Below, one piece after another: positions 1 to 39,949 of a stretch of 64,000 nucleotides of DNA; the stretch's first letter is position 1, and each line of letters starts with the position of its first letter. A model generated the notes under the pieces. That model was not told the DNA's origin and did not search any database. It worked only from the letters and a program-made list of their open reading frames with translations. The position numbers and the translations under genes are program-made. The stretch spans positions 2,781-66,780 of the IMG/VR virus record IMGVR_UViG_3300017747_003445; one strand, 5' to 3'. This DNA is from a virus. Taxonomy: Duplodnaviria > Caudoviricetes.

Positions 1-1
1 A

Positions 2-85
2 TGGTTCAAAGGTTCGGGATTTAATAGAATATCTAAAAAGACTTTTGAAAATCACCCTAGTTTATATAGGATAAAGGTTAACTGA
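2..85 (+). CDS. Possible 3' end of an ORF entering from outside the window (…WFKGSGFNRISKKTFENHPSLYRIKVN*)
   Basis: Frame 2 is open for 27 codons from the window edge to TGA at 83-85 in AT-rich sequence; the start is not visible. Confidence 0.35.
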   Translation, partial: WFKGSGFNRISKKTFENHPSLYRIKVN

Positions 86-144
86 TGATGGAATTAATTT
101 CCGAAAGGTTCACGAGAATAGTAAAAGCTATTCGCCTCTTAACC
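76..144 (+). ncRNA. Type I hammerhead ribozyme
   Basis: Stem I GGTTAA(76-81)/TTAACC(139-144); core CTGATGA(82-88) plus one extra T; stem II GGAA(90-93)/TTCC(99-102); GAAA(103-106); stem III AGG(106-108)/CCT(135-137) extended by hairpin GAATAGT-AAAA-GCTATTC; NUH triplet CUC(136-138), predicted cleavage after C138. Confidence 0.8.
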
Positions 145-188
145 AAAAAAAAAAGTGGAGTCACCACATAAAAAACTGCAATTGATTT

Positions 189-1094
189 ATGAAAACTTTT
201 AACGACAAATTTTCAGCGAACACCAACGAGCAAGCAGAATCAAAAATTACCTCAATTTTAGCCAATTCTAGACAAGATAATGTCTTGGTGACATCGGAGG
301 TCGTTCCATTGGAGAAACTGACAGGAATGCCATCTAGAAGAGGATTAGAGAATGCTATCATTTGCGAGAATCAAATCGTGAATGTAGTATCCAATTCCTA
401 TGGTCATTTACCTAATGAAAAATTCTTCCTAGGTGTGGAGGAAAAGTTAATTGATGCTGACATCTACTACCAACAACGTAGTATCAATCGTGACAATCGC
501 TCATTCGTTGTGGATTATATCCTAGCAGATGACCGATACAAAATTGAGGTGAAAGGTGACAAGGATATTTTGCGTCCAATGTTACGCTTTGTGAATTCTT
601 ACGATGGTTCATGCAAGACTAGTGGTTCATTCGGATTTTGGCGCAAAGTATGTGACAATGGCTTACACGTAGCGCAAACGCACATAGGATTTAGCGTTAA
701 GCATTCCGGTGCAATCGCTGACATTGTAATGCCTAAATTGGATGAGATTGTAGGTCAGTTTATGGACAATGAATTTTTCACCCTTAAGCGCAAATTTGAG
801 GTGCTTGCTGAACGTCCGGTGTACAACTTGGAGGATTATGTTAAAGTGACCGCAAAGAGCCTAGGAATGTTTAAATATGAGATGTCTGATAAAAACCCAG
901 AACCTAGCGCAAACGCTCGCTTTGTATTGGATGTGATTGACCGCGAATCAAGACAATTGAATACACGCCCTAACCAATGGATTGTATACAATGCATTCAA
1001 TGAATTGTTGCATAGTAAATTGAAGAAAACTTTTGACCAACAACGCACGTTGGATGAGAAGTTATTTGAAACTATCTACGCTGACATTAACTAA
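189..1094 (+). CDS. DUF932/DUF945-family phage/plasmid protein
   Basis: Motif 'FVNSYDGS…GFWRKVCDNGL' and C-terminal 'WIVYNAFNE' are typical of the family; 301 aa. Confidence 0.75.
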   Translation: MKTFNDKFSANTNEQAESKITSILANSRQDNVLVTSEVVPLEKLTGMPSRRGLENAIICENQIVNVVSNSYGHLPNEKFFLGVEEKLIDADIYYQQRSINRDNRSFVVDYILADDRYKIEVKGDKDILRPMLRFVNSYDGSCKTSGSFGFWRKVCDNGLHVAQTHIGFSVKHSGAIADIVMPKLDEIVGQFMDNEFFTLKRKFEVLAERPVYNLEDYVKVTAKSLGMFKYEMSDKNPEPSANARFVLDVIDRESRQLNTRPNQWIVYNAFNELLHSKLKKTFDQQRTLDEKLFETIYADIN

Positions 1095-1102
1095 TATATA
1101 AA

Positions 1103-1126
1103 GGGGAGAGAAATCTCCCCATTTTT
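1103..1126 (+). terminator. Intrinsic terminator
   Basis: GGGGAGA-GAAA-TCTCCCC hairpin followed by ATTTTT, directly after the DUF932 stop. Confidence 0.75.
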
Positions 1127-1147
1127 AAACTTATTAAATTAAACAAA

Positions 1148-1531
1148 ATGAAAAATTTATTAGAAGTTGAAGGAAATTACCATTCAACTTATGCATTCGT
1201 GCAACAAAACAATTTAGAAAATACTGCTACTAAAGTCCTCGGTAAAGGATGGGAAGCAGAAGATGATTGCGGACAAATTCAAGAGATAATTAATTCTCTT
1301 GGTATCGGTAGTTATTCGGTTGTATGCAATGAGCATATTGATTCTGATGGAGATGATATTGAGGTAAGGAAAATATCTGACATAGAAGGAATTGACAAAG
1401 CATTCAAACAATTAATCTCTCTTTATGATGTATGCGATGATTTAGAAAATAATGGCGAAGATAAATCAGCTAAAAAAATGAGAATTACATTAAACAAATT
1501 AGGGGCATTTATACAATCATTAAAAAATTAA
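1148..1531 (+). CDS. Hypothetical early protein
   Basis: 127-aa ORF starting at a repeat motif. Confidence 0.7.
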   Translation: MKNLLEVEGNYHSTYAFVQQNNLENTATKVLGKGWEAEDDCGQIQEIINSLGIGSYSVVCNEHIDSDGDDIEVRKISDIEGIDKAFKQLISLYDVCDDLENNGEDKSAKKMRITLNKLGAFIQSLKN

Positions 1532-1536
1532 ACAAA

Positions 1537-1848
1537 ATGGAAAACACTACTACGCTTGAATCGTCTTGGGGATTTGTAACTATCCTTACACCTACGGGTG
1601 CTATATTAGAAACTAACTGCTCTGATTTGCCTAACGAAAAATGCTACATCTTGGATATAGAGAGATTTGATATAGCAGAATTTAATGATTGGTTTTTTAG
1701 GCGCTATGGATGGCAACCGCCATTGGATTCCATTGATATCCTTGAACTAGGATATTGGTTAAAGGATGGCACATATGTTGCTCCATCTAATTGGAGATAT
1801 GAGATTCGTGAGGAACTAGAAAAGGAAGGAAAACTTATTATTTATTAA
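1537..1848 (+). CDS. Hypothetical early protein
   Basis: 103-aa ORF starting at a repeat motif. Confidence 0.7.
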   Translation: MENTTTLESSWGFVTILTPTGAILETNCSDLPNEKCYILDIERFDIAEFNDWFFRRYGWQPPLDSIDILELGYWLKDGTYVAPSNWRYEIREELEKEGKLIIY

Positions 1849-1867
1849 ACTTATTAAATTAGATAAA

Positions 1868-2068
1868 ATGAAAGATTTATTTGAATGTCCTAATAAATTG
1901 CCTAAAAATATACAAGCTATTTTAAAGCGATTTAACGACCTAGAAATTGAAAGGGGTATACAATATACCGACCTCGTCCAAATGGGCAAGGAATTGGCTA
2001 ATTATGGCTATAGTTTTGATTTCTATCTTGACTGCGTACCTTATAATCTTAAAAAAATAAAAAATTAA
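1868..2068 (+). CDS. Hypothetical early protein
   Basis: 66-aa ORF starting at a repeat motif. Confidence 0.65.
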   Translation: MKDLFECPNKLPKNIQAILKRFNDLEIERGIQYTDLVQMGKELANYGYSFDFYLDCVPYNLKKIKN

Positions 2069-2073
2069 ACAAA

Positions 2074-2265
2074 ATGAAAAAATTTATTACAACTGCAATC
2101 TTATTCGCTCTATTTTTTAGCGCCTCTGCTAATGATATTATTATCAAGGATACCACAATAAACAAAGTAGTTTATTCAATGTATCAAGGTGCTAGAGGTG
2201 GAAGGTATATTATCGTTACAAGCCACAGCGGAACGACATACCGAAAATATTTTAAAAAGAAATAA
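2074..2265 (+). CDS. Small exported basic protein
   Basis: Signal peptide MKKFITTAILFALFFSASA; C-terminal GARGGRY…YRKYFKKK. Confidence 0.65.
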   Translation: MKKFITTAILFALFFSASANDIIIKDTTINKVVYSMYQGARGGRYIIVTSHSGTTYRKYFKKK

Positions 2266-2286
2266 TTAACTATTAAATTAAACAAA

Positions 2287-2559
2287 ATGAAAAACAAAAT
2301 ATTGTGTTCAATTTACAATTTATGTTTTTATATAGACAATAAATTAGGCTATATTGAAAGTTACGATTACGAAACCGCTCCATATTGTGGTCACCATTAC
2401 GATGGACATAAAGGAAAGTTTACTGCTTCGGATTATCACGAAGGAGATGGAGAAAAATATTGTATATTTTTATTTTGGGTAGTTGCAAAATGCACCGAAG
2501 ATAAAAATTGGTATATACAAACAAAAAAGCAATTCAATAAATATTATAAAAGATTTTAA
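2287..2559 (+). CDS. Hypothetical early protein
   Basis: 90-aa ORF starting at a repeat motif. Confidence 0.6.
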   Translation: MKNKILCSIYNLCFYIDNKLGYIESYDYETAPYCGHHYDGHKGKFTASDYHEGDGEKYCIFLFWVVAKCTEDKNWYIQTKKQFNKYYKRF

Positions 2560-2569
2560 ACTAGATAAA

Positions 2570-2833
2570 ATGAAAAACAAAATACCAACCGAAAAATTAG
2601 AAAAATGGATTAGCAATTTACTAAATGATATTGATGCAGATGAATTGTTTAGGATGCTATCCAATGAATGCGACAAAAAACAATTGGGATACCTACATGA
2701 CGCAATTAAAGACGAATTAAGGCTACATGATAAGTATGTCATAGAATGTACCAACCTAATTGATAAGCAGAAATTTGAGGCTTTTATGGAAGATTACAAG
2801 CCATATTACAATGAACAATCACTAATATTTTAA
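2570..2833 (+). CDS. Hypothetical early protein (start revised from 2483 to 2570)
   Basis: The CTAGATAAAATG repeat motif places the start at MKNKIPTEKL and removes the overlap with the upstream ORF. Confidence 0.65.
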   Translation: MKNKIPTEKLEKWISNLLNDIDADELFRMLSNECDKKQLGYLHDAIKDELRLHDKYVIECTNLIDKQKFEAFMEDYKPYYNEQSLIF

Positions 2834-2851
2834 ATTATTAAATTAGATAAA

Positions 2852-3160
2852 ATGACAAATCAAGACGATATGTGGAATTGTTCAGAATGTGGACAATTAC
2901 AAGGCAGACACGATATGTGGTTTGATGGTATATGTGAAAACTGCAATACCAACGCTACAAAAAAAGGGACTTTTTATATAAATGAATTAGCGTGCGAATT
3001 GGCTGATTTATATATAAAACAAACCTATGAGTATACCACCGAAACCATTTGGGAGGATGATGGCGAAGGTGGTAGCAAATACACCGAATTTATGCAAGAG
3101 CAATTTGACATCATGCATGGCAAAATAGAATCCTATTTATTAAGAAACCAATTAAAATAA
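2852..3160 (+). CDS. Hypothetical protein with N-terminal Zn-ribbon-like Cys pairs
   Basis: CSEC…CENC; starts at a repeat motif. Confidence 0.65.
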   Translation: MTNQDDMWNCSECGQLQGRHDMWFDGICENCNTNATKKGTFYINELACELADLYIKQTYEYTTETIWEDDGEGGSKYTEFMQEQFDIMHGKIESYLLRNQLK

Positions 3161-3833: not shown

Positions 3834-4060
3834 ACCAACACCAAATGTTAAGGGACACTATGTATGTCATGTTTAAGGATAAACACCTTCCTTATTGTGA
3901 CATGGAGGATTTTATTGCAATGTGGGAGGCATTAGCGAATAAATGGAACATTCGTATAGATGATGATTTATGGGATGAATTTGCGGAAGAAATAAACTGC
4001 GTAGCATCCAATAGACAAAACTATTTTAACGAAATTTTTGACAAATATTTTAATAATTAA
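3818..4060 (+). CDS. Hypothetical protein
   Basis: 80-aa ORF. Confidence 0.6.
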   Translation: MDKKVNQHQMLRDTMYVMFKDKHLPYCDMEDFIAMWEALANKWNIRIDDDLWDEFAEEINCVASNRQNYFNEIFDKYFNN

Positions 4061-16378: not shown

Positions 16379-17992
16379 CTATATTTTAATCCAACTAGAC
16401 CCTCCATTATTAGACCTCCATAATTCATTAGTATTATTACTACTATAATTACAAGTGCCTGCTAATATATATTGACCATCATCTGACGCTGAAATAGCCC
16501 ACCATTGTTTATTTCCGGGTCCCGATACTGCTGTTAGTGGCGTTGCAAAACTAGCTCCACTTTGATAAATTGGATAAGTAGTATTAGCACTATAATAAAG
16601 AGTATAAAATCTATTTGAACCATTATTAAATACAGCGATTCCACGATAAGCTGATGCAACAAAAGTAGAAAAACTACTACCTGAATTAGTAGAGGTATAT
16701 ATATCTGCACCTATTAGCCCAATCACTGAACCACTTGATGTCATTGATATTCCTCTTTTAGAAATGCCTTGTGTTCCAAAAGTAACAGATGTCCAACTAG
16801 CACCATTATTAGTAGATTTAGAAATCCCTGTTTGAGTGCTGATAACCATTAAGGAGCCATCTGAATCTATTTCACTAACAAAAAAACTATTTTGTTCATT
16901 TTGGTCATCTTCGTCAATAGCAAGAGAAAATGATGCTCCAAAGTTATTAGATAAATAACTTCTAGATGTTGGAGTACTAGCACTACATAATGAAGGGAAA
17001 AGACATACTATAATATGCTCTCCATCTCCTGAAATAGATACATTGCTTATAGCTAATGGATTAGGGTAATCACAGGAAGGGATATTGCTTGTTATATCTG
17101 TAAAACTAGCACCATAATCACTAGAGAAAATAAGTTTACCATATTGTTCGCCTGCTACTACATACTCTCCAGTATCTGATATAGCAATTGAACTCCAATA
17201 ACCAATTAATGTAGATTGTTGTCCTCCAACCTTTTGGAAATTTACACCGTAATCAATAGAGCGGTATATATACCCTTGTAAATTATCAAGAAATTGAGGT
17301 CCGACTTTTGCTGAAGCTACTACTTGATATTGTCCTGTTGTTCTACTAACAGCTACTGATGAAATTGGGAATTTTACATCAGTAACTCCATTATTAATTC
17401 CTCCATCTTCTACTACTACTCTAATAGCACTTGGAGCATATATAGTATAAGGAAAAGATAATAATACATATTGTGGTCCACTTGGAAGAAATATATCAGA
17501 TTGGTCTACTATTTGATTGCTTGAGTATATAGTAATATGAGCATAACCTGATGGGCTGCTTATTGTACCATCTATATATAATATAAATCCAAAACCGGCT
17601 CCATTATCTGCATATACTTGAAAATCATAATTAATTGTAGTAATAGTAGTTACATTATATGAAAAAGCGGCAAGATTCCCATTAGTTGAACCTGTAAAAT
17701 AAATACCATAAGCAGGCTCCATAGTTATTGTTCCTGTAGTATATATATCACCTTTTACAACAAGCTGATTTGTAGTTTTATTTGCAAAAGGAGGATATGC
17801 CGCTATAGTTGGATATGATATAGAAAGAGGGGCAAGTATATAATCTTCAAATTCTTGTTTAGTTATTTGCTTTGTACTAACAGGGACAGGATTAGATGGA
17901 AATGCCGGAGCATAAAATGGAGGATTAGTTATTGCATCTTGTAAATTATTACAAGAAACACATTGGTTATCAGCTATACTTGCAAAACTCAT
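16379..17992 (-). CDS. Tail-associated protein with BNR/Asp-box beta-propeller
   Basis: Asp boxes SIDYGVNF, SSDYGASF, SNNFGASF, STNNGASW, STNSGSSF, SNNGGSSW. Confidence 0.75.
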   Translation of the reverse strand: MSFASIADNQCVSCNNLQDAITNPPFYAPAFPSNPVPVSTKQITKQEFEDYILAPLSISYPTIAAYPPFANKTTNQLVVKGDIYTTGTITMEPAYGIYFTGSTNGNLAAFSYNVTTITTINYDFQVYADNGAGFGFILYIDGTISSPSGYAHITIYSSNQIVDQSDIFLPSGPQYVLLSFPYTIYAPSAIRVVVEDGGINNGVTDVKFPISSVAVSRTTGQYQVVASAKVGPQFLDNLQGYIYRSIDYGVNFQKVGGQQSTLIGYWSSIAISDTGEYVVAGEQYGKLIFSSDYGASFTDITSNIPSCDYPNPLAISNVSISGDGEHIIVCLFPSLCSASTPTSRSYLSNNFGASFSLAIDEDDQNEQNSFFVSEIDSDGSLMVISTQTGISKSTNNGASWTSVTFGTQGISKRGISMTSSGSVIGLIGADIYTSTNSGSSFSTFVASAYRGIAVFNNGSNRFYTLYYSANTTYPIYQSGASFATPLTAVSGPGNKQWWAISASDDGQYILAGTCNYSSNNTNELWRSNNGGSSWIKI

Positions 17993-17993
17993 A

Positions 17994-20900
17994 TTATTTC
18001 AATTTAGCTTCTAGTTTAGCAATTCTTTCTTCTAGTTTAGATAGTTTATAAGTATTTACGTGGTTGTAATCAACTTGCTTATATCCCTCTACATTATTGT
18101 GTACTGCATTTGGAAGTACTTTTTCTACTTCTTGTGCTATGTAACCAAAACAAGATTTATTATCCGTATCTTTTTTCCAAGAGAATTGACTAAAATTAAT
18201 ACCATCATAAGCACTAAATGTGTTATGAATATTTTTAAGTCTGCAATCTGATGTTTCAAAAAATGCTGTGGCAAACATACAAGAACAAGCACAAGAGTTA
18301 TTTGTATAAAAAGTACAAGCTGCTGAAGCAGTGATGCTACAACCAAAAGCTCCCGACCAAGCCCCACTAGCGGTATTACTTGAACCTCCTAAAACAGCAG
18401 AACAACCACCTGATGCTGCATTTGAAACACCTCCTACAACTACACTACGATATCCTGAAGCTGTATTACTATCACCACCGCCTACAAAACTTCTACCACT
18501 ACTTGCGGTGTTACTTGCTCCTCCTGCAACTGTTGTAAAATATGTTCCACTAGCTGTGTTTGATGCACCCCCACCTACTGTATTGTAAGCAATACCTGAA
18601 GCTGTGTTACCAACACCGCCTGACACTGTTGAGCTTAAGGTTGAAGCTGTATTACCTGTACCACCTGACACTGTAGAAGTAGCTCCTGAAGATATGTTAC
18701 TAACACCACCCCCTACAACAGAACAAACACCTGATGCTGTATTTGTAACACCTCCTCCTACTGTTGAATAACTATTTGTTACTGTATTAGTACATCCACC
18801 TGCTATTGCTCCCCAAGCACCTGAAACAACATTTGCTCTACCACCACCAATAAATCCGTGACAACCTGCTGATATTACATTTTGATAACCACCTGATATT
18901 GTTGATGCATAGACACCACATATTCTACTGTTATAACCTGCACCAATAAATGAATAATATCCTGAAGCTGTATTGTCTGCTCCTCCTACTACTGCTGCTT
19001 TATAAGGTCCACAAGCTCTATTACCTGTACCTCCAACAACAACAGCAGCCCAAGAAGTAGCATTATTACTATATCCACCACCTACAAAAGTACCGCAATT
19101 TGTTGATGTATTGCCAAATCCGCCTGAAACCACTGATGCACAACCTGAAGCTGTATTAGCATATCCACCTCCTGCTTTTGAAAATACACCTGAAGCTGTG
19201 TTTGATTGTCCACCACCTATTGATGTGTGGCTAGCTGATGCTACACTACCATATCCACCTACAATTGATGCACAAGAACCTGATACATTATTATTTTGAC
19301 CACCACCAATAAATGCACGATATCCTGAATTGGTATTAGTTCTTCCTCCTACAACTACATTTTCTGTTCCTGTAACTCTATTTGCATATCCTCCTGATAT
19401 TGTTGAAGCATAACCACATACTATATTATTATATCCACCACCAATAGTATCATAAGTACCTGATGCTGTATGTGCTCTACCACCTGCTACTGTTGTAGCT
19501 TGACCATTTGATGTGTTACTAATACCACCACCTATTACGGCATAAATAGCTGATGAATTATTTCCGCTACCTCCTGCATTTACTGAAAAACTACCTGATG
19601 CAGCATTACCTCCTCCGCCTCCCGCAAAAGAACAAGCACCTGATGCAGCATTAGCTGCACCACCACTTACTGTACTATGAGTTCCTGAAGCTGTATTTAC
19701 TCTTCCACCTGCTATAACACTTCTGTTACCACTTGCTGTATTAGCTTCTCCACCTCCTATAAAAGAAGAATAGTTTGATACAGTATTATAATATCCACTC
19801 CCAATACCTGACCAAATATAACCAACATTATTACAAATACCTCCTGATACTACAGCATATCCTGCTGAAGCTGTATTTGTTTTACCTCCACCTATAAATG
19901 AACAAGCTCCTGAAGCTGTGTTAAGTGTACCACCTCCTATTGTAGATAAATAACCACTACTTATGTTATTATACCCTCCTGCTATAGTTGAATTTACTCC
20001 TGATGATGTATTTGTTTGCCCTCCTCCAATTGTACTACCAAAACCACTATTATTCACATTTTGATATCCTCCTCCTATTGTACCATAAGGTGCACTATTT
20101 GTATTTTGATATCCACCTATTACTGAAGTATATTGTGCTGTTGCCCTATTCTGAAATCCTCCTCCTATTGTTGAAAACTGACCTGCTGCAAAAAATGTTG
20201 TAGGAGCTACTGAAAAAAATCCATTTGTAGTATTAAATGTACCACCTGATGTGTTGTTTCCAATACCACCTGATATTGTTGTACCTGATGTACATCCTGC
20301 TGCGACAGAACTACAAATATAGTTACAAGTACCTGCACCAATAAATGATGCTGTTGAATTTAAACAGTTTTTATAACCTGCTGATATTGTATTATAATTA
20401 CCACTACTATTATTATACCATCCACCACTAATTGTGTTAGCATAACCACTTGCTGTGTTTGTTTGACCACCACCAATAAATGAACGAGAACCTGATGCTG
20501 TGTTTGATATACCTCCTGAAACTGTAGAAAATTGATTTGAAGCTGTATTAGAACATCCTCCTATAATAGCTGAAGTTGAACCTGATGATATATTATTATT
20601 ACCACCACCTACAAAAGAGTATCCCCCTGAAGATGTATTACCTTTACCACCTGCTATTGTACCTGATGTAGCAGGAGCATTGTTACTCCTACCTCCTGCT
20701 ATTGTAACATAATATCCTGAAGCTGTATTTGATGTTCCACCTCCAATTGTACCACCATATTGACTATTTAATACATTACTTGCACCACCACCAATAGTAC
20801 TTGCAGCATTGGCTCCAATAACACAAACAACGTTAGCTTGACCACCACCTATAGTAGCGAATGCTCCTAATGCTCTATTAGAAATACCACCACCAATAGC

Positions 20901-23900
20901 TGAGCAATTGCCTGAAGCTGTATTACATGCACCACCATTTACTGCACTATGGTTCCCTGAAGCAGTGTGTGCACCTCCTCCTGCTATAACTGAATTTAAT
21001 CCTGAAGCAATATTTGAATCTCCACTTAGTACGGATGAATAATAGCTTCCTGAAGCAGTATTGTTATACCCTCCCCCTACAACGTGAAGACCTTGACCAC
21101 ACGCTCTATTAGTACTACCCCCTCCTATAAAAGAACGACTAGCTGTAATTGAGTTAAGATATCCACCACTTATTGTTGACCAAGCTGTACTTGCTGTATT
21201 ACCACATCCACCAACTACAGCAGAGCAAGCAGCTGATGCAGTGTTACCGTGTCCTCCTGCAACCACTGCTCTATAGCCTGATGCTGTATTGCTATCTCCG
21301 CCACTAACAACACTTCTACCAGCACTCGCAGTATTTGATGCCCCACCTGAAACAGTTGCAAAATATGTTCCACTAGCTGTGTTTGATGCACCACCACTTA
21401 CTGTTGCATAAGCAATACCTGAAGCAGTGTTTTGCTGACCACCACCTACCGTAGAACGATAAGTTGAAGCTGTATTAGTAAAACCACCACTTACTGTAGA
21501 ATGAACTCCCAAAGCTTTATTACAAATACCACCTCCCACAAATGCATGCGCTGCTGTAGAACAGTTTGCAAGTCCCCCTCCAACAAAAGCATAATTTGCA
21601 GAGGCTAAATTTCCATTACCACTTGCTATACCTGAAATATATCCTGATGCTGTATTGTTTACGCCAAATACTACTGAAAAACCACCACTTGCTGTGTTTG
21701 TTCTACCACCTGCTGTTGAGTAGTTTCCTGATGCTGCATTACTACCACCGCCTACTACTGTAGAATTACAACCTGAAGCTGTGTTTAAATTACCACCACT
21801 AACAGTTGCATAAGTTGAATTTGCTGTATTTCCATCTCCTCCAACAACAACAGAAATATATCCTGATGCTGTATTGGCTGAACCGCCACCGTGAAACGCT
21901 CTTGCGCCTGATGCTCTATTGTTTGACCCTCCTACAGAAGTAGCTAAACAAGCTGTTGCACAAACTAATGTGCCTCCACCTACAAACGCATAGTCACCAC
22001 AGCTAATATTCATCCAACCACCTGCAAGAACACCTGCTGTTCCCATAGAATAAAGAGTAGTTGGAGCAGTTGAAAAATATGCAGCACCCATAACACCACC
22101 TGCTGTATTGTTTCCAATACCACCCCCCATAAATGAACCTATACCTGTTGCTCTATTACATATACCTCCTGCAACAGTTGATTGCACTCCTGATGCACAG
22201 TTTCTATATCCTCCTGATACAGTACTACTGTATCCACTTGCTAAATTTACATATCCTCCTCCCACTGCAGAATAAGAATTTGAAGCTGTATTTGCATAAC
22301 CACCACCTATTGATGTGTGATTAGACGATGCTACATTACCATATCCGCCTAAAGCAGCAGAATAATTACCTGATGCACTATTTACAACACCACATCTAAC
22401 AGATGATAATGTACCTGCTCCTAATATAATAACAGCACTAGAACCAACATTTATACCACTAGAACCTGAAGTACCTGCCGTTCCGCTTGTTCCACTAGAA
22501 CCACTTGTCCCACTAGTTCCTGAAGAACCGCTAGTTCCTGTAGTTCCACTTGTCCCAGTCGTTCCTGAAGAGCCAGATGTTCCTGAAGTACCAGATGAAC
22601 CAGAAGTTCCAGAAGTTCCAGATGAGCCACTACTACCACTTGTACCCGTTGTTCCACTAGTACCTGATGAACCTGAAGTCCCTGATGTACCCGTAGAGCC
22701 ACTAGTACCAGTTGTACCGCTTGTTCCAGAAGAACCTGATGTTCCTGTTGTGCCACTAGTTCCAGAAGAACCTGAAGTTCCTGTTGTGCCACTAGTACCA
22801 TTTGTACCATTTATACCGCTAGTTCCTGATGTTCCTGAAGTTCCGCTTGTGCCAGAAGTACCACTTGTTCCCGAAGTTCCTGAAGTTGTACCTACAGCTA
22901 TACCAATTTGTTTTATGTTGGTAATAATTGAAGGTGCTGCTGGTATTGTGCCTGTTGCAGCTACTGCTGTTACCTGAACATCAGATGCATTTGCTTGAAA
23001 ATAAACTTCATAATAATCATTAGCATTTGCACTATCAATAATAGAAACGAATGGTAACTGCTTTGCACTTTGGCTTCTTAAACCTAAGATAGAATCAGTT
23101 CTAATAATATTAGCTCCATTTTTCCTTAACCAAATATTAACATCTGCACCACCACCACCTGTATGTTCTATCTGTAATGAATATGCAATTTCATATATTC
23201 CAGTATGTTGAACAGTAAGTTGTGAACCACTGAAAACAATACCATTACTATATTCATCATTTGTATATGTAATTGCTGTTGGTGTATTTGCCGCAGTTAC
23301 CACTTGAGTAGCTGTACTTGTAAACGCACCATACCAGTTAGCAATAGAAGCTCCTGAAGTACCATCTATACCATTGCGTCCCGAAGTACCTGATGAACCA
23401 CTAGAGCCGCTTGTACCAGATGTTCCAGATGTTCCTGTAGTTCCGCTTGTACCAGATGTTCCACTTGTGCCGCTAGAGCCGCTTGTGCCTGTAGTGCCTG
23501 ATGTTCCCGAAGAGCCATCACCACCACTAGCACCATCCAAGTTTACTACCCATGCAGAATAAGTTCCACTACCCACTGTTCTAGTTGGGGCTGCAAATTG
23601 CAAAGCACCCGTTACACTATTATATGAAATAACCTCACACTCTTGGAAGTTTGAAATATTATAAACTACTATTATTGATTGAGCCACTGTATAAGCAAGT
23701 CCTGTTCCAACAGTTATTGTTGCCGCATTGCCTAATGTAAATGTTGAAGTAGATGTGGTAGCATATTTATCACCTGTGTACCCTGATGTTCCTGCGGTTC
23801 CTGAAGAACCACTTGTACCAGATGTCCCACTCGTTCCATCTGTTCCTGAAGAGCCACTAGTTCCTGTAGAACCAGAAGTACCTGTCGTTCCTGATGTTCC

Positions 23901-24635
23901 GCTTGAACCTGAAGTTCCCGTAGTACCACTTGACCCCGTAGTTCCGCTTGTACCACCTGTTCCGCTTGTACCTGCCGAACCACTCGTTCCTGATGTTCCA
24001 CTAGTTCCGCTTGTGCCATCGCTCCCTGAAGTACCGCTAGTACCTGTAGTACCTGAAGTCCCCGTTGTACCTGAAGTCCCAGTAGTTCCTGAAGTTCCAG
24101 TAGTCCCTGATGAGCCAGAAGAACCGCTTGTTCCTGATGTACCTGTAGTACCTGAAGAACCGCTTGTTCCTGAAGTTCCAGAAGAGCCACTTGTTCCTGA
24201 AGTTCCAGAGCTTCCACTTGAACCACTCGTTCCACTTGTGCCAGTTGTTCCACTTGTTCCGCTTGTTCCATCAGTTCCGCTAGTACCTGAAGTACCACTT
24301 GTTCCATCTGTACCTGAAGTTCCCGAAGTTCCACTAGTTCCGCTCGTACCCGTAGTTCCACTTGTTCCTGTAGTACCAGAAGTTCCTGAAGTACTTGAGC
24401 TACCAGAACTACCGCTTGTTCCTGCTGAACCGCTTGTACCAGAAGTGCCTGTTGTGCCTGAAGTACCTGTTGTTCCACTTGTACCCGTAGTACCACTCGT
24501 ACCACTTGTACCCGAAGAACCTGAAGTTCCTATAGTTCCTGAAGTATCGGCTGCTACTATGCCATTAACGGCAACCAAAATTCCATTTTCATTTCTTATT
24601 TTTATATCCCCCGTAATGAGTGATTGAATAGCCAT
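17994..24635 (-). CDS. Long tail fibre: Gly-Thr-Ser collagen-like blocks, globular inserts, ~14-aa beta-helix repeats and C-terminal S74 intramolecular chaperone
   Basis: (GTS/GSS/GTT)n; xVxGGxxNTASG repeats; 'ETSDCRLKNI…GYIAQEVEKVLP…VDY' followed by a terminal coiled coil. Confidence 0.9.
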   Translation of the reverse strand: MAIQSLITGDIKIRNENGILVAVNGIVAADTSGTIGTSGSSGTSGTSGTTGTSGTTGTSGTTGTSGTSGSAGTSGSSGSSSTSGTSGTTGTSGTTGTSGTSGTSGTSGTDGTSGTSGTSGTDGTSGTSGTTGTSGTSGSSGSSGTSGTSGSSGTSGTSGSSGTTGTSGTSGSSGSSGTTGTSGTTGTSGTTGTSGTTGTSGTSGSDGTSGTSGTSGTSGSAGTSGTGGTSGTTGSSGTTGTSGSSGTSGTTGTSGSTGTSGSSGTDGTSGTSGTSGSSGTAGTSGYTGDKYATTSTSTFTLGNAATITVGTGLAYTVAQSIIVVYNISNFQECEVISYNSVTGALQFAAPTRTVGSGTYSAWVVNLDGASGGDGSSGTSGTTGTSGSSGTSGTSGTSGTTGTSGTSGTSGSSGSSGTSGRNGIDGTSGASIANWYGAFTSTATQVVTAANTPTAITYTNDEYSNGIVFSGSQLTVQHTGIYEIAYSLQIEHTGGGGADVNIWLRKNGANIIRTDSILGLRSQSAKQLPFVSIIDSANANDYYEVYFQANASDVQVTAVAATGTIPAAPSIITNIKQIGIAVGTTSGTSGTSGTSGTSGTSGTSGTSGINGTNGTSGTTGTSGSSGTSGTTGTSGSSGTSGTTGTSGSTGTSGTSGSSGTSGTTGTSGSSGSSGTSGTSGSSGTSGTSGSSGTTGTSGTTGTSGSSGTSGTSGSSGTSGTAGTSGSSGINVGSSAVIILGAGTLSSVRCGVVNSASGNYSAALGGYGNVASSNHTSIGGGYANTASNSYSAVGGGYVNLASGYSSTVSGGYRNCASGVQSTVAGGICNRATGIGSFMGGGIGNNTAGGVMGAAYFSTAPTTLYSMGTAGVLAGGWMNISCGDYAFVGGGTLVCATACLATSVGGSNNRASGARAFHGGGSANTASGYISVVVGGDGNTANSTYATVSGGNLNTASGCNSTVVGGGSNAASGNYSTAGGRTNTASGGFSVVFGVNNTASGYISGIASGNGNLASANYAFVGGGLANCSTAAHAFVGGGICNKALGVHSTVSGGFTNTASTYRSTVGGGQQNTASGIAYATVSGGASNTASGTYFATVSGGASNTASAGRSVVSGGDSNTASGYRAVVAGGHGNTASAACSAVVGGCGNTASTAWSTISGGYLNSITASRSFIGGGSTNRACGQGLHVVGGGYNNTASGSYYSSVLSGDSNIASGLNSVIAGGGAHTASGNHSAVNGGACNTASGNCSAIGGGISNRALGAFATIGGGQANVVCVIGANAASTIGGGASNVLNSQYGGTIGGGTSNTASGYYVTIAGGRSNNAPATSGTIAGGKGNTSSGGYSFVGGGNNNISSGSTSAIIGGCSNTASNQFSTVSGGISNTASGSRSFIGGGQTNTASGYANTISGGWYNNSSGNYNTISAGYKNCLNSTASFIGAGTCNYICSSVAAGCTSGTTISGGIGNNTSGGTFNTTNGFFSVAPTTFFAAGQFSTIGGGFQNRATAQYTSVIGGYQNTNSAPYGTIGGGYQNVNNSGFGSTIGGGQTNTSSGVNSTIAGGYNNISSGYLSTIGGGTLNTASGACSFIGGGKTNTASAGYAVVSGGICNNVGYIWSGIGSGYYNTVSNYSSFIGGGEANTASGNRSVIAGGRVNTASGTHSTVSGGAANAASGACSFAGGGGGNAASGSFSVNAGGSGNNSSAIYAVIGGGISNTSNGQATTVAGGRAHTASGTYDTIGGGYNNIVCGYASTISGGYANRVTGTENVVVGGRTNTNSGYRAFIGGGQNNNVSGSCASIVGGYGSVASASHTSIGGGQSNTASGVFSKAGGGYANTASGCASVVSGGFGNTSTNCGTFVGGGYSNNATSWAAVVVGGTGNRACGPYKAAVVGGADNTASGYYSFIGAGYNSRICGVYASTISGGYQNVISAGCHGFIGGGRANVVSGAWGAIAGGCTNTVTNSYSTVGGGVTNTASGVCSVVGGGVSNISSGATSTVSGGTGNTASTLSSTVSGGVGNTASGIAYNTVGGGASNTASGTYFTTVAGGASNTASSGRSFVGGGDSNTASGYRSVVVGGVSNAASGGCSAVLGGSSNTASGAWSGAFGCSITASAACTFYTNNSCACSCMFATAFFETSDCRLKNIHNTFSAYDGINFSQFSWKKDTDNKSCFGYIAQEVEKVLPNAVHNNVEGYKQVDYNHVNTYKLSKLEERIAKLEAKLK
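18330..22400 (-). repeat. Degenerate ~14-aa repeat array (e.g. STVSGGISNTASG)
   Basis: Dozens of GG-xx-NTASG units in the fibre translation. Confidence 0.9.
22455..24545 (-). repeat. Three Gly-X-Y (X,Y = Thr/Ser) triplet blocks
   Basis: About 23780-24545, 23350-23525 and 22455-22890; Gly every third residue with variable synonymous codons. Confidence 0.9.
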
Positions 24636-29823: not shown

Positions 29824-32190
29824 TTATTTTGTTTTCATTGTTTGTACTTGCTTTCTGTCACTTACCGCTATTCTAGCATCTGCTGCTATTCTTTGAGCGA
29901 TAACTTTTGCTTCTTTTTGTATTTCAGCTTCTTGAATATCTTTATCCTTCTTGCCCATTTGAATAATATATTCCCATTGTTTTTCGGCATTAATTTTAGC
30001 TATATCTGCATTTAATTGGTCTTGCAATGTGATACGCTTTTCTTGTTCAGCTGTTTGAACTGCCATTGCATTACCTTGAGAAGCTTCTCTTACCTTCTGT
30101 AATTCATATTCCTGCATCTTCTCTCTACGCTTCTTAATCTTATATGCAAGTATCATTGATGCCATTTTTAAATTACGGCAACTCATTACAAGTATTTTAT
30201 CTTCAGGCTCAATCAATCCTTGAGAATCTCTAATGTTTAATTCTTGTATTAGTTGTTGTCTTTCGTAATCAGATGGGCTATCTTCAATAAATATACCAAA
30301 CTCATGAATAGATAAATCAGGATTAATTTGGAAAAATTTAACGGTTTCCGTACCCAATGCTCTACCATAACCTTCTACCTTACCTAACTTGACAGCTATC
30401 TGTACTTTTGCAACAATAGCGTCAGCAACATTTTGTACCAATTGCTTGTCCGCAAAACTTAATAAGTATAAAGCATTATTAGTGCTTTCCATTGCAGCGT
30501 TTGCAACTGGAACTAATGTTTTTGCATTTGGAGTAGAACCATCTGTCAATTCATTTAATCCTGATATTTGACGCATCATATCAATAGTGTTTTGCAACTC
30601 TTGATACAATTGACCAAATACAGCTAATTGCCCTGAAGCTTCAATGCTTACTGGCTTGTAGTTTGGATTTTGACTTAACAAATCTGTTGAACGATAAGGT
30701 ACAACAAAATTAGAAAATATAAAATCCATAACCTTTGTTGGATTCATCTTATCACCACCACCACCAAAATCAACTCCTTCTAATGCATTTAAATCTATAT
30801 TTATTAAATACGGAATTAATTTATTAGACATATTTTGAAGCCTGAACCAAGCTAAACAAGCTTTATCTTCTAATGGAATCAATCTTTCTGTAATGCCTGC
30901 GAAACGCATTTTATAGAAATTCCATGAGTATAATTGGATGTTTAATTTTGTATCCCACCAAGACGAAGGCTGTCTAATTTGATTTTCAGACATACCCCAA
31001 TCATACATATAATCGGTTTGAATTAACCATTTGCATTTATAAACAACCTTTTTAGTAACAGGCATATATACAGGCTCGGCTTGTCCTTTGCTTTTTGAGT
31101 CAACTAAACTAGGTACAGAACCTGCGTAGTCAAACTTTTCAATAGTGCCTTTCTCGTTAACCGCCAAGTCCATTTTGCTTGAATCCTGATACTTTGTTTT
31201 ACCAAAGCGAGCATTACCTCTGTTATCTATTTCTTCTTTATAAGTGTAATCATTCCATGATAGGAATTCAAAATCTAAAATAAGCACCTTAAAACGATTC
31301 CAATATTTTGAATAGTCTGTGCCATACATAAAATTAGATGGGTTACCAAAACGTCCGGCTACAGATTGAACTATCAAATTTAATTGGTCGGGGGAAAAAT
31401 AAGGTGCTAGGTCCCCTACATATACTTCTCTAACTTCTCCGAAATGTACTAAATCGGAAAAGTCATTTTTTGCGCAATACGATAATACTAAATTTTCAGG
31501 ATTAACTTCTCTTACATTCACCGCACCATTCTCATCTATATATTCAGTATATCCACCAATACCAAAATCAAATAAATTTTCAATAGTTCTTTTTCTTTTC
31601 TCGTCAAATTTATTTTTATACATTGTCAAAGCAATAGCACATTCTGCTTCCATTGCCATAACATGTTTGTAACCAAATTGTTGTTCCATTAACAACTGCT
31701 CCATATCTTCAGGCTCACCCTCCATTGGTTTTAATACTGGGCTATTAGCTAATTGCTCATTACCTGCCTTTATTGCAGCTTCACGCATCATCACCTTAAC
31801 TTTCATTTCATTAAAGCGTTCATCTTCTTCACTTTTAGCCAAAGGGTCAACTGCAAATGCTTGCAAATCATAACGCCTTTGAACAAGTTTTGAAATAGCT
31901 ATCTCTCTATACTTTGTTAAAAATGATGGTGGAGTCCAATCCGTATTAAGCCATGTTTTATCTGTTTGCTCATCTACATTCAAAAGTTTTTTATACTTTG
32001 TAGTGCTTTGTCTTCCTAATGCATACTCTCTTATTTCATTCATTTTTGATTGACCGAAATTCAACATATTATTTGGCACATAACCACGGGAATCACCCCA
32101 TGCCGCTTTGCAATATTGAAGTATCCAATCATATCCTTTTTCCCTTGGGTCAATCTGTTGATTAGGGTATGTATTTGTAGCTTGTTGCAT
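29824..32190 (-). CDS. Portal protein
   Basis: 788 aa upstream of scaffold/MCP; portal-like 'ENLFDFGIGG', 'VREVNPENL', 'ISGLNELTDGSTP' and C-terminal coiled coil. Confidence 0.85.
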   Translation of the reverse strand: MQQATNTYPNQQIDPREKGYDWILQYCKAAWGDSRGYVPNNMLNFGQSKMNEIREYALGRQSTTKYKKLLNVDEQTDKTWLNTDWTPPSFLTKYREIAISKLVQRRYDLQAFAVDPLAKSEEDERFNEMKVKVMMREAAIKAGNEQLANSPVLKPMEGEPEDMEQLLMEQQFGYKHVMAMEAECAIALTMYKNKFDEKRKRTIENLFDFGIGGYTEYIDENGAVNVREVNPENLVLSYCAKNDFSDLVHFGEVREVYVGDLAPYFSPDQLNLIVQSVAGRFGNPSNFMYGTDYSKYWNRFKVLILDFEFLSWNDYTYKEEIDNRGNARFGKTKYQDSSKMDLAVNEKGTIEKFDYAGSVPSLVDSKSKGQAEPVYMPVTKKVVYKCKWLIQTDYMYDWGMSENQIRQPSSWWDTKLNIQLYSWNFYKMRFAGITERLIPLEDKACLAWFRLQNMSNKLIPYLINIDLNALEGVDFGGGGDKMNPTKVMDFIFSNFVVPYRSTDLLSQNPNYKPVSIEASGQLAVFGQLYQELQNTIDMMRQISGLNELTDGSTPNAKTLVPVANAAMESTNNALYLLSFADKQLVQNVADAIVAKVQIAVKLGKVEGYGRALGTETVKFFQINPDLSIHEFGIFIEDSPSDYERQQLIQELNIRDSQGLIEPEDKILVMSCRNLKMASMILAYKIKKRREKMQEYELQKVREASQGNAMAVQTAEQEKRITLQDQLNADIAKINAEKQWEYIIQMGKKDKDIQEAEIQKEAKVIAQRIAADARIAVSDRKQVQTMKTK

Positions 32191-37278: not shown

Positions 37279-37901
37279 GGTTGTATTTCTCCTAGTTTTT
37301 GATAGTATCTGTTTTCTATGAATGGTCGCCAGTCTATAAATTGACCGCCTATATCAGACATTCCTTCTTTCTGTGTGCAAAGTAACGGATATGTTATGTA
37401 AGTTTGCTGCATAGGTTGTATTTTTTCAACAATACAATTATCTATCGGAGCATATAGCCCTTGAATTAATATCTCTTTCATCCCTTGCAATGACAAAGCC
37501 CAAGCGTGGGTAGCGAAAGCCTTTTCTACTCTTAATAAATTAGGGGATGTTCTTGCTCTAAAACCGCCAGTAACCTGCGCTCCTAATAGTAATATATGCC
37601 AAGCTTCGGGTAGTTGTTTTACTACCTTTTCCATTGTTTCATTAGGGTTGCCACACGATTCAACAAACATTGCATCGTCTTCAAAAATTAATACTGAATC
37701 CCATTTGTTTTCAATTGCTTTTTCAAATATACCCTGCACTGTAAGGCGTAGTCCTTCTGCTCCTTTTTCATGCTTAATAGCATTAACTAGCTCATACGGA
37801 ATACTCCATTTATCTAATTCGCCGGCTATATCTAATAACCTATCAGTTCTTTCGGGTAAATTTATAACGAATATTTTCGTAAAAAAGTCTGTCCACGCCA
37901 T
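37275..37901 (-). CDS. GT25 glycosyltransferase
   Basis: 'FVINLPERTDR', 'LIFEDDA', 'ATHAWALS', 'PIDN'. Confidence 0.85.
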   Translation of the reverse strand: MAWTDFFTKIFVINLPERTDRLLDIAGELDKWSIPYELVNAIKHEKGAEGLRLTVQGIFEKAIENKWDSVLIFEDDAMFVESCGNPNETMEKVVKQLPEAWHILLLGAQVTGGFRARTSPNLLRVEKAFATHAWALSLQGMKEILIQGLYAPIDNCIVEKIQPMQQTYITYPLLCTQKEGMSDIGGQFIDWRPFIENRYYQKLGEIQP

Positions 37902-39949
37902 TATGCTATTTTTGTTTGTTTAAAAAAGTCTGTGATTTTAATTCTATCTTCTGATTTCTTAAAAATTGCTCGTTTAAAATAGTCAGCAACAAGCGTCCAC
38001 CCGCCTCCCATTACAAGGTCACTTACTTCGGTTTCATTCACATTAAATTTAAGAAGTCCATCGTACTTATCATCTATCAATTCCGGATATATCAATTTAC
38101 CTTCCTTGCCATGCGTTAAGATATACTGCTCCCATAGGTTTACCATAAGTGCTTTATTATCGGCATTAGGGTCAATACCATAATTTGCTTTATCAGGCAA
38201 TCTCATTAGAAATGCTTCACAGTTATTATCTATAAAAAATTTACGCAAACCCCCATCCATTTTAGCCTCTATCAACATTTGTCCGCCATAAGCAAAGCAT
38301 TGTAAAACCATATCCATATGAAATAACTCTACCATTCTAGGTCTTGCATGATACTTACTAACAAACATCATGTTATACACTGGGTCATTGTTACCTATGT
38401 CATATCTATTTAACACCAAGCTTGTGGCTTTAGAGCCTTCGCCATATTCGACAACTGAATTCTGAAACGGGTCACATCCCATAATAAATTGAACAGGATT
38501 TTTAGGTAAAAATAAAGACCCCCTAGTTATGTATGTTTCGCCTTCGGGTCGCTTAAAGTTTTTAGCTATAGTCCATCTACCATTCTCTTTTGTTGTAGGA
38601 TGCCATTCCGCCTCTGTAAAAGGTTTGCCATCTTTCCACATCCAATTGCCATATTCTAATACTTCCTTTTCGTTTATTTTAGATATTTCATACAAATCAT
38701 TCAGCAATACAGCATCAAAATGACAATTATTATTCCGAAGCATAAACATCTCCCTCTCATCAAAAGGGTTCATCCTTATCTCTTCCTCTAATTGTACGCT
38801 TTCTAAAATCTTTCTTTTCTCTTTTAAATATTCTTTTGCGCCTAATTTAATATCTTCTTCATTAAGGTCACCTGCGCCTACATAATTATCAACTAAAAAT
38901 TTATATTGCTCTTCGTTTGGCGGGTCAATGACACTCATCCCGTATCTATCTATAAAACCCAAGTACCCGTCATAAGCCGGAGAAAAATATTTAGCAAGTC
39001 TATTAGGAGTTTTTGAGTATTTAGTATGGTCTGCGTTATCCCAGACAATCTTAAATTCTTCTCCTCCACTAGTCATTGAATTGGATGTTGATGGACATTC
39101 TATAAATCCTACCCTTTTAGCACCCTTTACAAGTGTCTTGCTTACAATTGATATAAATGTCGAGAATGGGTTTTCTTTTGCCCATTTTCCGCCTTCATCA
39201 AACAATCCACGACTTAACCTTCCGGAGTCATAAGAGTTCAAGGAAGGCGCTCTGTAATCAATTTTAGACCTATGTCCGGTATCTGTGTCAATTGTACTTC
39301 CTTTTCCACCTTTTACTTCTACAGACTTATGCGCAAATACAAGTTCACTTACGCTGTCTTTGTTGTTTAATTGCTTTGGTTTTAAGAACACGGGCAATTG
39401 CCTATATCCAAAAGAAATCATATTTGTAAATGCAGCTTTGGCATCTATCTGCGTTTTGCTTGTTAATCCGCAAAAGCTATTTTTATAGAAGATACACTCA
39501 TAAACGATATTTGATGTCGCTTGCGAGGTTGCACCCTCTCTACGCTTTTTACCCCTAACAACACCTAAACACCAAGGAGTCTTCTCCCAATGGTCTAAAA
39601 ACAAAAAATAACGCCTATCCGCATCCCTAAAATCGCCATAAATATCATCTTCTAATTTCCACCATTGAAGATAAAAATAATGCTTACCTGTAAGAAAAGT
39701 TGGCACCCCATTGTTGTAGAACCAAAACCCTTTTCTACATCTATCTACCTCTCTTGCTGCAAATTCAGATTGCTCTAAATCCAATAGCGCATTACCTTCT
39801 TTATCATATTCTACCGATTCAAAAAATTTAGGCAATTCTTTTCTTCTCCAATACTGCTCACTAGCAATATCAGCTCCCCAATCTTCAATTTCATCAGGGA
39901 CGGGAGGTAGATTAATTTCTACCCCGTATATTTTTATTTTATCAGACAT
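37901..39949 (-). CDS. terL: Terminase large subunit
   Basis: ATPase 'KKRREGAT' and Walker B 'GLFDEGGK'; RNase H-like nuclease 'IMGCDPF…DLVMG'. Confidence 0.9.
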   Translation of the reverse strand: MSDKIKIYGVEINLPPVPDEIEDWGADIASEQYWRRKELPKFFESVEYDKEGNALLDLEQSEFAAREVDRCRKGFWFYNNGVPTFLTGKHYFYLQWWKLEDDIYGDFRDADRRYFLFLDHWEKTPWCLGVVRGKKRREGATSQATSNIVYECIFYKNSFCGLTSKTQIDAKAAFTNMISFGYRQLPVFLKPKQLNNKDSVSELVFAHKSVEVKGGKGSTIDTDTGHRSKIDYRAPSLNSYDSGRLSRGLFDEGGKWAKENPFSTFISIVSKTLVKGAKRVGFIECPSTSNSMTSGGEEFKIVWDNADHTKYSKTPNRLAKYFSPAYDGYLGFIDRYGMSVIDPPNEEQYKFLVDNYVGAGDLNEEDIKLGAKEYLKEKRKILESVQLEEEIRMNPFDEREMFMLRNNNCHFDAVLLNDLYEISKINEKEVLEYGNWMWKDGKPFTEAEWHPTTKENGRWTIAKNFKRPEGETYITRGSLFLPKNPVQFIMGCDPFQNSVVEYGEGSKATSLVLNRYDIGNNDPVYNMMFVSKYHARPRMVELFHMDMVLQCFAYGGQMLIEAKMDGGLRKFFIDNNCEAFLMRLPDKANYGIDPNADNKALMVNLWEQYILTHGKEGKLIYPELIDDKYDGLLKFNVNETEVSDLVMGGGWTLVADYFKRAIFKKSEDRIKITDFFKQTKIA

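Follow-up and report, generated by a model that had tools for sequence, protein, structure and literature searches.

Since 2011, hammerhead ribozymes have been known to lie between the genes of phages. Clusters of them flank single genes in prophages and in the intergenic regions of phages, and some of these ribozymes cleave in vitro and in vivo (PMC3088659); the clustered prophage hammerheads have been proposed to cut long phage transcripts into mRNAs of single genes (Perreault et al., 2011, PMC3088659). A variation of the core is described for the (+) hammerhead of the viroid CChMVd, which has an extra A at the A9/G10.1 site; as summarised in two reports, this A lowers the rate of the ribozyme and is kept for another role (PMC1636495, PMC3705267). 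In the same reports, a change of the extra A to U is reported to increase the rate of trans-cleavage 3-4 fold, while C or G at this site is detrimental (De la Pena and Flores, 2001; PMC3705267, PMC1636495).

Our analysis shows a large and uncatalogued family of hammerheads in freshwater phages of Bacteroidota, placed between small genes that are presumably early. The member studied here is found in a stretch of viral DNA of 64,000 nucleotides (the window), corresponding to bases 2781-66780 of a 66,780-base record with inverted terminal repeats; positions are those of the window unless the record (G000) or another locus is named, and the element and the genes beside it are on the + strand. The core and helices occur at 76-144 in exactly the order given by an earlier reading of this DNA made from its letters alone (the sequence-only reading). 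The 5' strand of helix I, GGUUAA (76-81), preceded by a flanking A at 75 and pairing with 139-144, leads into the catalytic core CUGAUGA (82-88; C3 U4 G5 A6 N7 G8 A9), an extra U between A9 and G10.1 (89), helix II (90-102; GGAA at 90-93 paired with UUCC at 99-102 around the 5-nt loop UUAAU) and the core bases G12, A13 and A14 (GAA, 103-105), which are invariant in the family. Helix III (106-137) opens with A15.1-U16.1 (A106-U137), G107-C136 and G108-C135, followed by an internal loop and, in the predicted fold, a distal stem (116-122/127-133) closed by the loop AAAA. C17 (138) then precedes the 3' strand of helix I, UUAACC, with its invariant flanking A (139-145), which would form the 5'-OH end of the downstream RNA. 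The predicted cleavage position (138|139) was placed by the sequence-only reading after C138, 50 nt before the DUF932 ATG at 189, and our coordinates agree.

In its minimum free energy fold, the element forms the three-way junction of a hammerhead and leaves the core unpaired; the fold energy of this single sequence is unremarkable (z -1.44). Both this fold and the consensus fold described below have the type I topology, with helix I open and helices II and III closed by loops. As expected of a hammerhead, A15.1 and U16.1 are paired and H17 is a C, not a G; the G10.1-C11.1 pair is present as G90-C102, but does not directly follow A9 since U89 is inserted. By these defining features, as far as sequence and predicted fold allow such a judgement, the element at 76-144 is a type I hammerhead, and comparison with other copies shows it to be more than a chance match.

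The same genome carries a second copy 1.85 kb upstream (record 1001-1068) that is 84% identical to the window copy. All catalytic bases and all pairs are kept between the two, and the differences are confined to N7, H17, the loops and three compensatory pairs: in helix II, A93-U99 becomes G-C with both sides changed, and in helix III, G107-C136 becomes U-A and A117-U132 becomes G-C. C17 is replaced by A, an allowed change, and the sole alteration of CUGAUGA falls on its free position, N7. When nine substitutions were placed randomly in 200,000 trials, core and pairing survived in 0.03% of them (p ~3e-4), and survival together with at least three double changes occurred in 0.0005% (p ~5e-6). 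With a family-specific model (see below), the window copy obtains 53.5 bits and its paralogue 49.4 bits, and nothing else in the genome matches.

An IUPAC pattern search returned matches in 44 IMG/VR contigs, many of them with 2-3 copies. A covariance model built from 17 short family members was then run over 64 loci and gave 135 matches, 93 of them distinct. The sequence-only reading had pointed to covariation in related phages as a check on its proposal, and the outcome is overwhelmingly in its favour: in the 93 distinct sequences, standard pairs fill 99.4% of pair cells and both-sided changes are seen in 12 of the 15 pairs, as counted on an alignment that was fitted to the family model. The covariation score is 0.526, compared to 0.111 with shuffled partners and at most 0.07 with partners slid by 1-3 columns, and RNAalifold, run on a MAFFT alignment made without regard to structure, arrives at the same 15 pairs. 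The identification as a type I hammerhead is thus upheld by the paralogue, by 93 distinct relatives with strong covariation and by recovery of the same fold.

The catalytic core is invariant across the family apart from N7 (U46 C30 A13 G4, n=93). Position 17 is C in 70/93 and A in 18/93; the other 5/93 rows are truncated, mis-aligned, a variant with a U15.1-A16.1 swap, or a degenerate copy. The A15.1-U16.1 pair is AU in 89 cases and UA in 1, and G10.1-C11.1 is a GC pair in 87/90. An apparent swap of the helix III closing pair to U15.1-A16.1 is seen at L004:3890-3948, and a variant of this kind has been found to retain self-cleavage (Perreault et al., PMC3088659). Two members of 106 nt (L008:3512-3617 and L009:1962-2067) have an insertion of ~60 nt in helix III, and the model truncates both.

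The three helices differ in how they vary, with helix I near-constant and helices II and III drifting. In helix II, pairs 10.2-10.4 covary, one of them being CG in 43 sequences, AU in 26, GC in 18 and UA in 6, and the loop keeps the pattern U-N-A-N-U; in helix III every pair shows double changes. Compensatory variants of helix I appear in more distant members (GUGUGA/UCACAC, GAUUAA/UUAAUC, GGUUGA/UCAACC and GGCAAA/UUUGUC), and an A stands on each side of the helix in 89/89 distinct relatives. Fast natural hammerheads usually depend on a tertiary contact of loop II with stem I. The candidates for such a contact are the U-N-A-N-U loop and the A's flanking helix I, among which there is no covariation.

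The extra base after A9 is present in 52/93 distinct relatives, where it is always U, the other 41/93 being canonical, and the two forms are found side by side within the same genomes. The view that this nucleotide is a tolerated variant is borne out by these relatives and by the published kinetics, and the exclusive use of U matches the rate result reported for the viroid. Rfam cmscan of 3 kb and of 141 nt around the window element yielded no hammerhead match at E<=10, and the same search with a minimal 51-nt extra-U relative gave no hammerhead match; only weak snoRNA-like matches came up, which were discarded as noise. A canonical sibling (L025:5577-5627) matches the Hammerhead_1 model RF00163 end-to-end with 29.2 bits (E=3.5e-5), the best score of a canonical sibling, and all the copies tested are below the RF00163 gathering score of 34 bits. 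The window copy has no match because of the extra U after A9: the curated models leave canonical members just under the cut-off and lose extra-U members entirely. The lack of an Rfam hit, which the sequence-only reading would have held against its own assignment, is therefore not a valid refutation, given that canonical siblings reach only 29.2 bits, that the family model gives the window copy 53.5 bits and that the covariation is so clear; the identity stands. In the literature, a search for papers with the exact phrase 'A9 and G10.1' together with hammerhead found none, and one for hammerhead ribozyme, Flavobacterium and phage found nothing relevant.

The gene context required one revision. 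DUF932 had been called the first early gene, which is an artefact of the window's edge: it appears first because the window begins at record base 2781, and about nine small + strand ORFs and the sister hammerhead lie upstream. This upstream part of the record consists of a conserved non-coding region, a promoter-like site (TTGACA-16 nt-CACAAT, record 662-689) and the ORF array, in which the small ORFs are separated by gaps of 4-17 nt and the sister ribozyme follows the first of them. The ORF preceding the window element (record 2674-2865) encodes 63 aa and its 3' end takes up window 1-85, such that its UGA stop (83-85) sits inside the CUGAUGA core. On the other side, the DUF932 leader (146-188) is followed by the DUF932 gene itself (189-1094, 301 aa; Pfam PF06067, 56 bits) and, right after it, by a terminator-like hairpin, GGGGAGAGAAAUCUCCCC, with a U-run (1103-1120; record 3883-3900). 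Several relatives have a second hammerhead in place of this hairpin. A Pfam search with the small flanking ORFs returned no families. The suggestion that the ribozyme processes an early polycistronic RNA fits this context, where both 'early' and 'polycistronic' are read from the gene layout alone. One freshwater metatranscriptome run holds short contigs of the phage, and both ribozymes fall outside those contigs.

The DUF932 leader contains a small hairpin, GUGG-AGUCA-CCAC (155-167), which is kept in relatives together with the subsequent AUAAAAAACUGCA (155-180 for the two). Its stem has variants that look compensatory, for example GGUG...CACC in L004. In L006, L008 and L009 the hairpin is found ahead of the gene that follows DUF932 as well; it has a weak Rfam match to the Bacteroidetes 'DUF805 RNA' motif (17.7 bits, against a cut-off of 51). 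Elsewhere in the window, the portal gene is at 29824-32190 and that of the large terminase at 37901-39949. Among the structural genes is an ORF of 2525 aa (40274-47851, minus strand) for which neither Pfam nor PHROG gave a match, and another of 2213 aa (17994-24635, minus strand), which combines collagen triple-helix repeats with a Peptidase_S74 chaperone domain at its C-terminus, is probably a tail fibre.

The arrangement around the window element recurs throughout the family. The stop codon of the upstream ORF is within the first 10 nt of the ribozyme in 61/88 cases, as the UAA of GGUUAA (38), the UGA of CUGA (13) or a UAG formed with G1 (10). After the predicted cleavage site comes a constant UUAACCA and an A-rich leader, and the next ATG is mostly 13-18 nt past helix I, with a second class at ~38 nt that has a small hairpin between. 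Among loci with DUF932 homologues (down to ~65% protein identity), 15/18 have a hammerhead directly upstream of the gene, and several have a further ribozyme directly downstream. Four whole related genomes contain 4, 5, 1 and 7 copies, all located within about 6-7 kb of one genome end and on the inward-reading strand. Although no ribozyme precedes the first gene of the array, the leader AUA-UUAACCA-A-rich is present there too, at the expected start of a primary transcript made from the promoter-like site. The leader also occurs without a ribozyme before other genes of related phages, and there are about 20 such leaders in the related loci. A ribozyme-less UUAACCA leader is also found at window 62207, before a + strand ATG close to the genome's right end. 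We considered whether separate UUAACCA sites of this kind might be cleaved in trans and ruled this out on topology: the loop-closed helix III keeps the cleaved nucleotide on the ribozyme strand, so that a separate UUAACC would not be cut.

A non-coding region of ~170 nt before the first array gene (L066:560-720, record G000 upstream of the window) is conserved in relatives. It shows some predicted pairing, with double changes in 9/33 pairs among 5 sequences only, and Rfam gave nothing for the conserved region upstream of the first array gene. A repeated promoter motif was also considered and dropped: a search of the window for another copy of the conserved ACACAATAGCCAAACATA, which precedes the first array gene, found none.

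The window element is very probably a type I hammerhead with the extra U typical of its family, one of two copies in this genome, which would cut the RNA of the array. As proposed for the clustered prophage hammerheads, its likeliest role would be to cut a polycistronic early transcript into single-gene mRNAs. We infer that the small + strand genes at the left genome end are transcribed as one long RNA, in which each ribozyme would fold and cut after position 17 (C17 in the window copy). Owing to the type I topology, the ribozyme and the upstream stop would remain on the upstream fragment, which would thus retain the entire body of the ribozyme along with the ORF and its stop codon, and would end in a 2',3'-cyclic phosphate behind a compact structure. 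The downstream fragment would start with 5'-OH-UUAACCA, followed by the A-rich leader and the ATG, and in the window it would carry the DUF932 gene up to the terminator-like hairpin. Translation initiation in Bacteroidota does not rely on Shine-Dalgarno pairing. The benefit to the phage may be a set of separate single-gene mRNAs, each with a uniform, unstructured leader suited to Shine-Dalgarno-free translation. Owing to the regularity of the layout, with the stop in the ribozyme, a constant leader and a fixed distance to the ATG, 'mRNA processing' becomes a specific and testable model, and the family adds a link to the Bacteroidota.

Other explanations account for parts of these observations. 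The missing Rfam match and the ordinary fold energy of the single sequence are what a chance hammerhead-like match in AT-rich intergenic DNA would give; this is refuted by the comparison with the paralogue, the 93 distinct relatives and the covariation in all three helices, and we attach next to no credence to it. It is quite improbable, in our estimate, that the extra-U version is catalytically weak or dead and acts as a stable 3' structure or as a spacer, blocking 3' exonucleases or uncoupling translation. The insertion does lie in the core, the Rfam models fail to score the copies that have it, and several natural core insertions lower activity (Perreault et al., PMC3088659). However, the catalytic bases show no variation either among the 52 extra-U copies or among the 41 canonical ones, both core forms co-occur in one genome, and the insert is always U, the one base that is reported to raise and not to lower the rate; a purely structural hairpin, moreover, has no need of G5, G8 or G12, or of a position 17 other than G.

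We also regard it as unlikely that the main role of the elements is at the DNA level, with their constant ends (AGGUUAACUGA and UUAACCA) acting as homology patches for the swapping of early-gene cassettes and RNA cleavage being secondary, even though part of the comparative evidence points this way. The window and L003 share DUF932 (99% protein identity) and its leader, and in the comparison of window 1-260 with L003:3740-4090 they part exactly at the helix I 3' strand, upstream of which neither the body of the ribozyme nor the preceding gene is related; the window copy is closer to its paralogue in the same genome than to its positional counterpart in L003. In a DNA contig from a related population, from another lake metagenome, the sequence 7 nt after ribozyme 1 is joined to record position 2651. 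This junction (L066:1075-2651) skips 1575 bases of small genes, with 30 letters on its shorter side, and weakly suggests the gain or loss of a cassette in the array. Recombination nevertheless leaves the invariant catalytic bases and the compensatory changes unexplained, the junction evidence comes from few comparisons, and DNA and RNA roles are compatible with each other. Since the similarity between the window and L003 ends at the helix I 3' strand, the elements also mark mosaic junctions.

A more elaborate version of the processing model can be offered only tentatively, and we consider it more doubtful than not. Each element might be a three-in-one junction, with a stop built into helix I or the core, self-cleavage and a constant leader, in which cleavage gives internal cistrons the 5' end of a primary transcript. 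The three frames of U-A-GGUUAACUGA offer UAG, UAA and UGA as stops. As the first array gene has the same leader without a ribozyme, cleavage may equalise the 5' ends of the cistrons, and it is a matter of speculation that the ribozymes supply internal cistrons with the 5' end of the first. A role of the leader may be the reason for helix I being near-constant while helices II and III drift. If this were true, a uniform 5' end would matter for Shine-Dalgarno-independent translation in Bacteroidota, and the constant ends could in addition drive the shuffling of cassettes.

The host of this tailed phage is probably a member of the Bacteroidota. Sequencing runs containing DNA of the window are lake and freshwater metagenomes, and a megablast search of window 1-3000 against cultured phages gave no match. 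The nearest cultured homologues of DUF932 are from phages of Flavobacterium psychrophilum (54.7%), and the whole genome of one such phage, 6H, has no family member. In a pattern scan of prokaryote genomes, Bacteroidota members were found in a Paraflavitalea chromosome and in Niabella, Agriterribacter, Pedobacter and uncultured Bacteroidetes; further members turned up in some differently labelled MAG contigs, and these may be phage DNA that was mis-binned. A single member, with 34 bits, is present in the cultured Flavobacterium phage vB_FspP_elemoA (MT497069.1, about 16398-16455, minus strand); its helix I is GGCAAA/UUUGUC and its flanking A's are kept. In vB_FspP_elemoA_15-9B (MT497069.1; L079:5975-6082), where the hammerhead is in a gap between + strand genes, a minus-strand CDS of 35 aa annotated as 'hypothetical protein' overlies it; this annotation is probably spurious. 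With Flavobacterium sp. BAL314 as its host, phage vB_FspP_elemoA offers a cultured system for experiments. More broadly, since curated models miss the extra-U core, phage genomes probably contain more copies of this sort than have been counted, and the family itself provides a large natural sample of this core.

Four described systems are closest to the family. In topology and core it is the same as RF00163 (Hammerhead_1), from which it is set apart by the scores given above, all tested copies being below 34 bits and the extra-U copies unmatched at E<=10. With RAGATH-1 (RF03152), it shares the type I topology, a short helix I ending in ..UUA/UAA.. and a bacterial or phage context. We nevertheless rejected this identity on score, hairpin and helix II: siblings match RF03152 weakly, with 26.1 and 19.9 bits against a gathering score of 56.3, and the RAGATH-1 model has an upstream hairpin and a helix II of 1 bp, whereas helix II of the family has 4 bp and a conserved 5-nt loop, and the sequences upstream of its members are the ends of unrelated ORFs and are not conserved. 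CCUA...UAGG at window 56-70 was considered as a counterpart of the upstream hairpin and set aside, with nothing comparable being conserved in relatives. The CChMVd (+) hammerhead is alike in having one extra base between A9 and G10.1, but the viroid base is A and the phage base, in 52/93 distinct copies, is always U.

The prophage arrays of Perreault et al. are similar in that several hammerheads occur in one co-directional block of phage genes, each beside a small gene, and the proposed processing role is the same. The adjoining genes there include ardA (anti-restriction), compared to DUF932 here (PMC3088659). The present arrays belong to a different host group, being from Bacteroidota phages of lakes; every copy is of type I, helix I hardly varies and stands between flanking A's, over half of the copies have the extra U, and the arrays have the upstream stop embedded in the ribozyme and the constant UUAACCA leader afterwards. 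While the placing of hammerheads between phage genes is of a known kind, the family itself, the natural occurrence of the extra-U core in more than half of its members and the layout of stop, ribozyme and constant leader in Bacteroidota phages are new.
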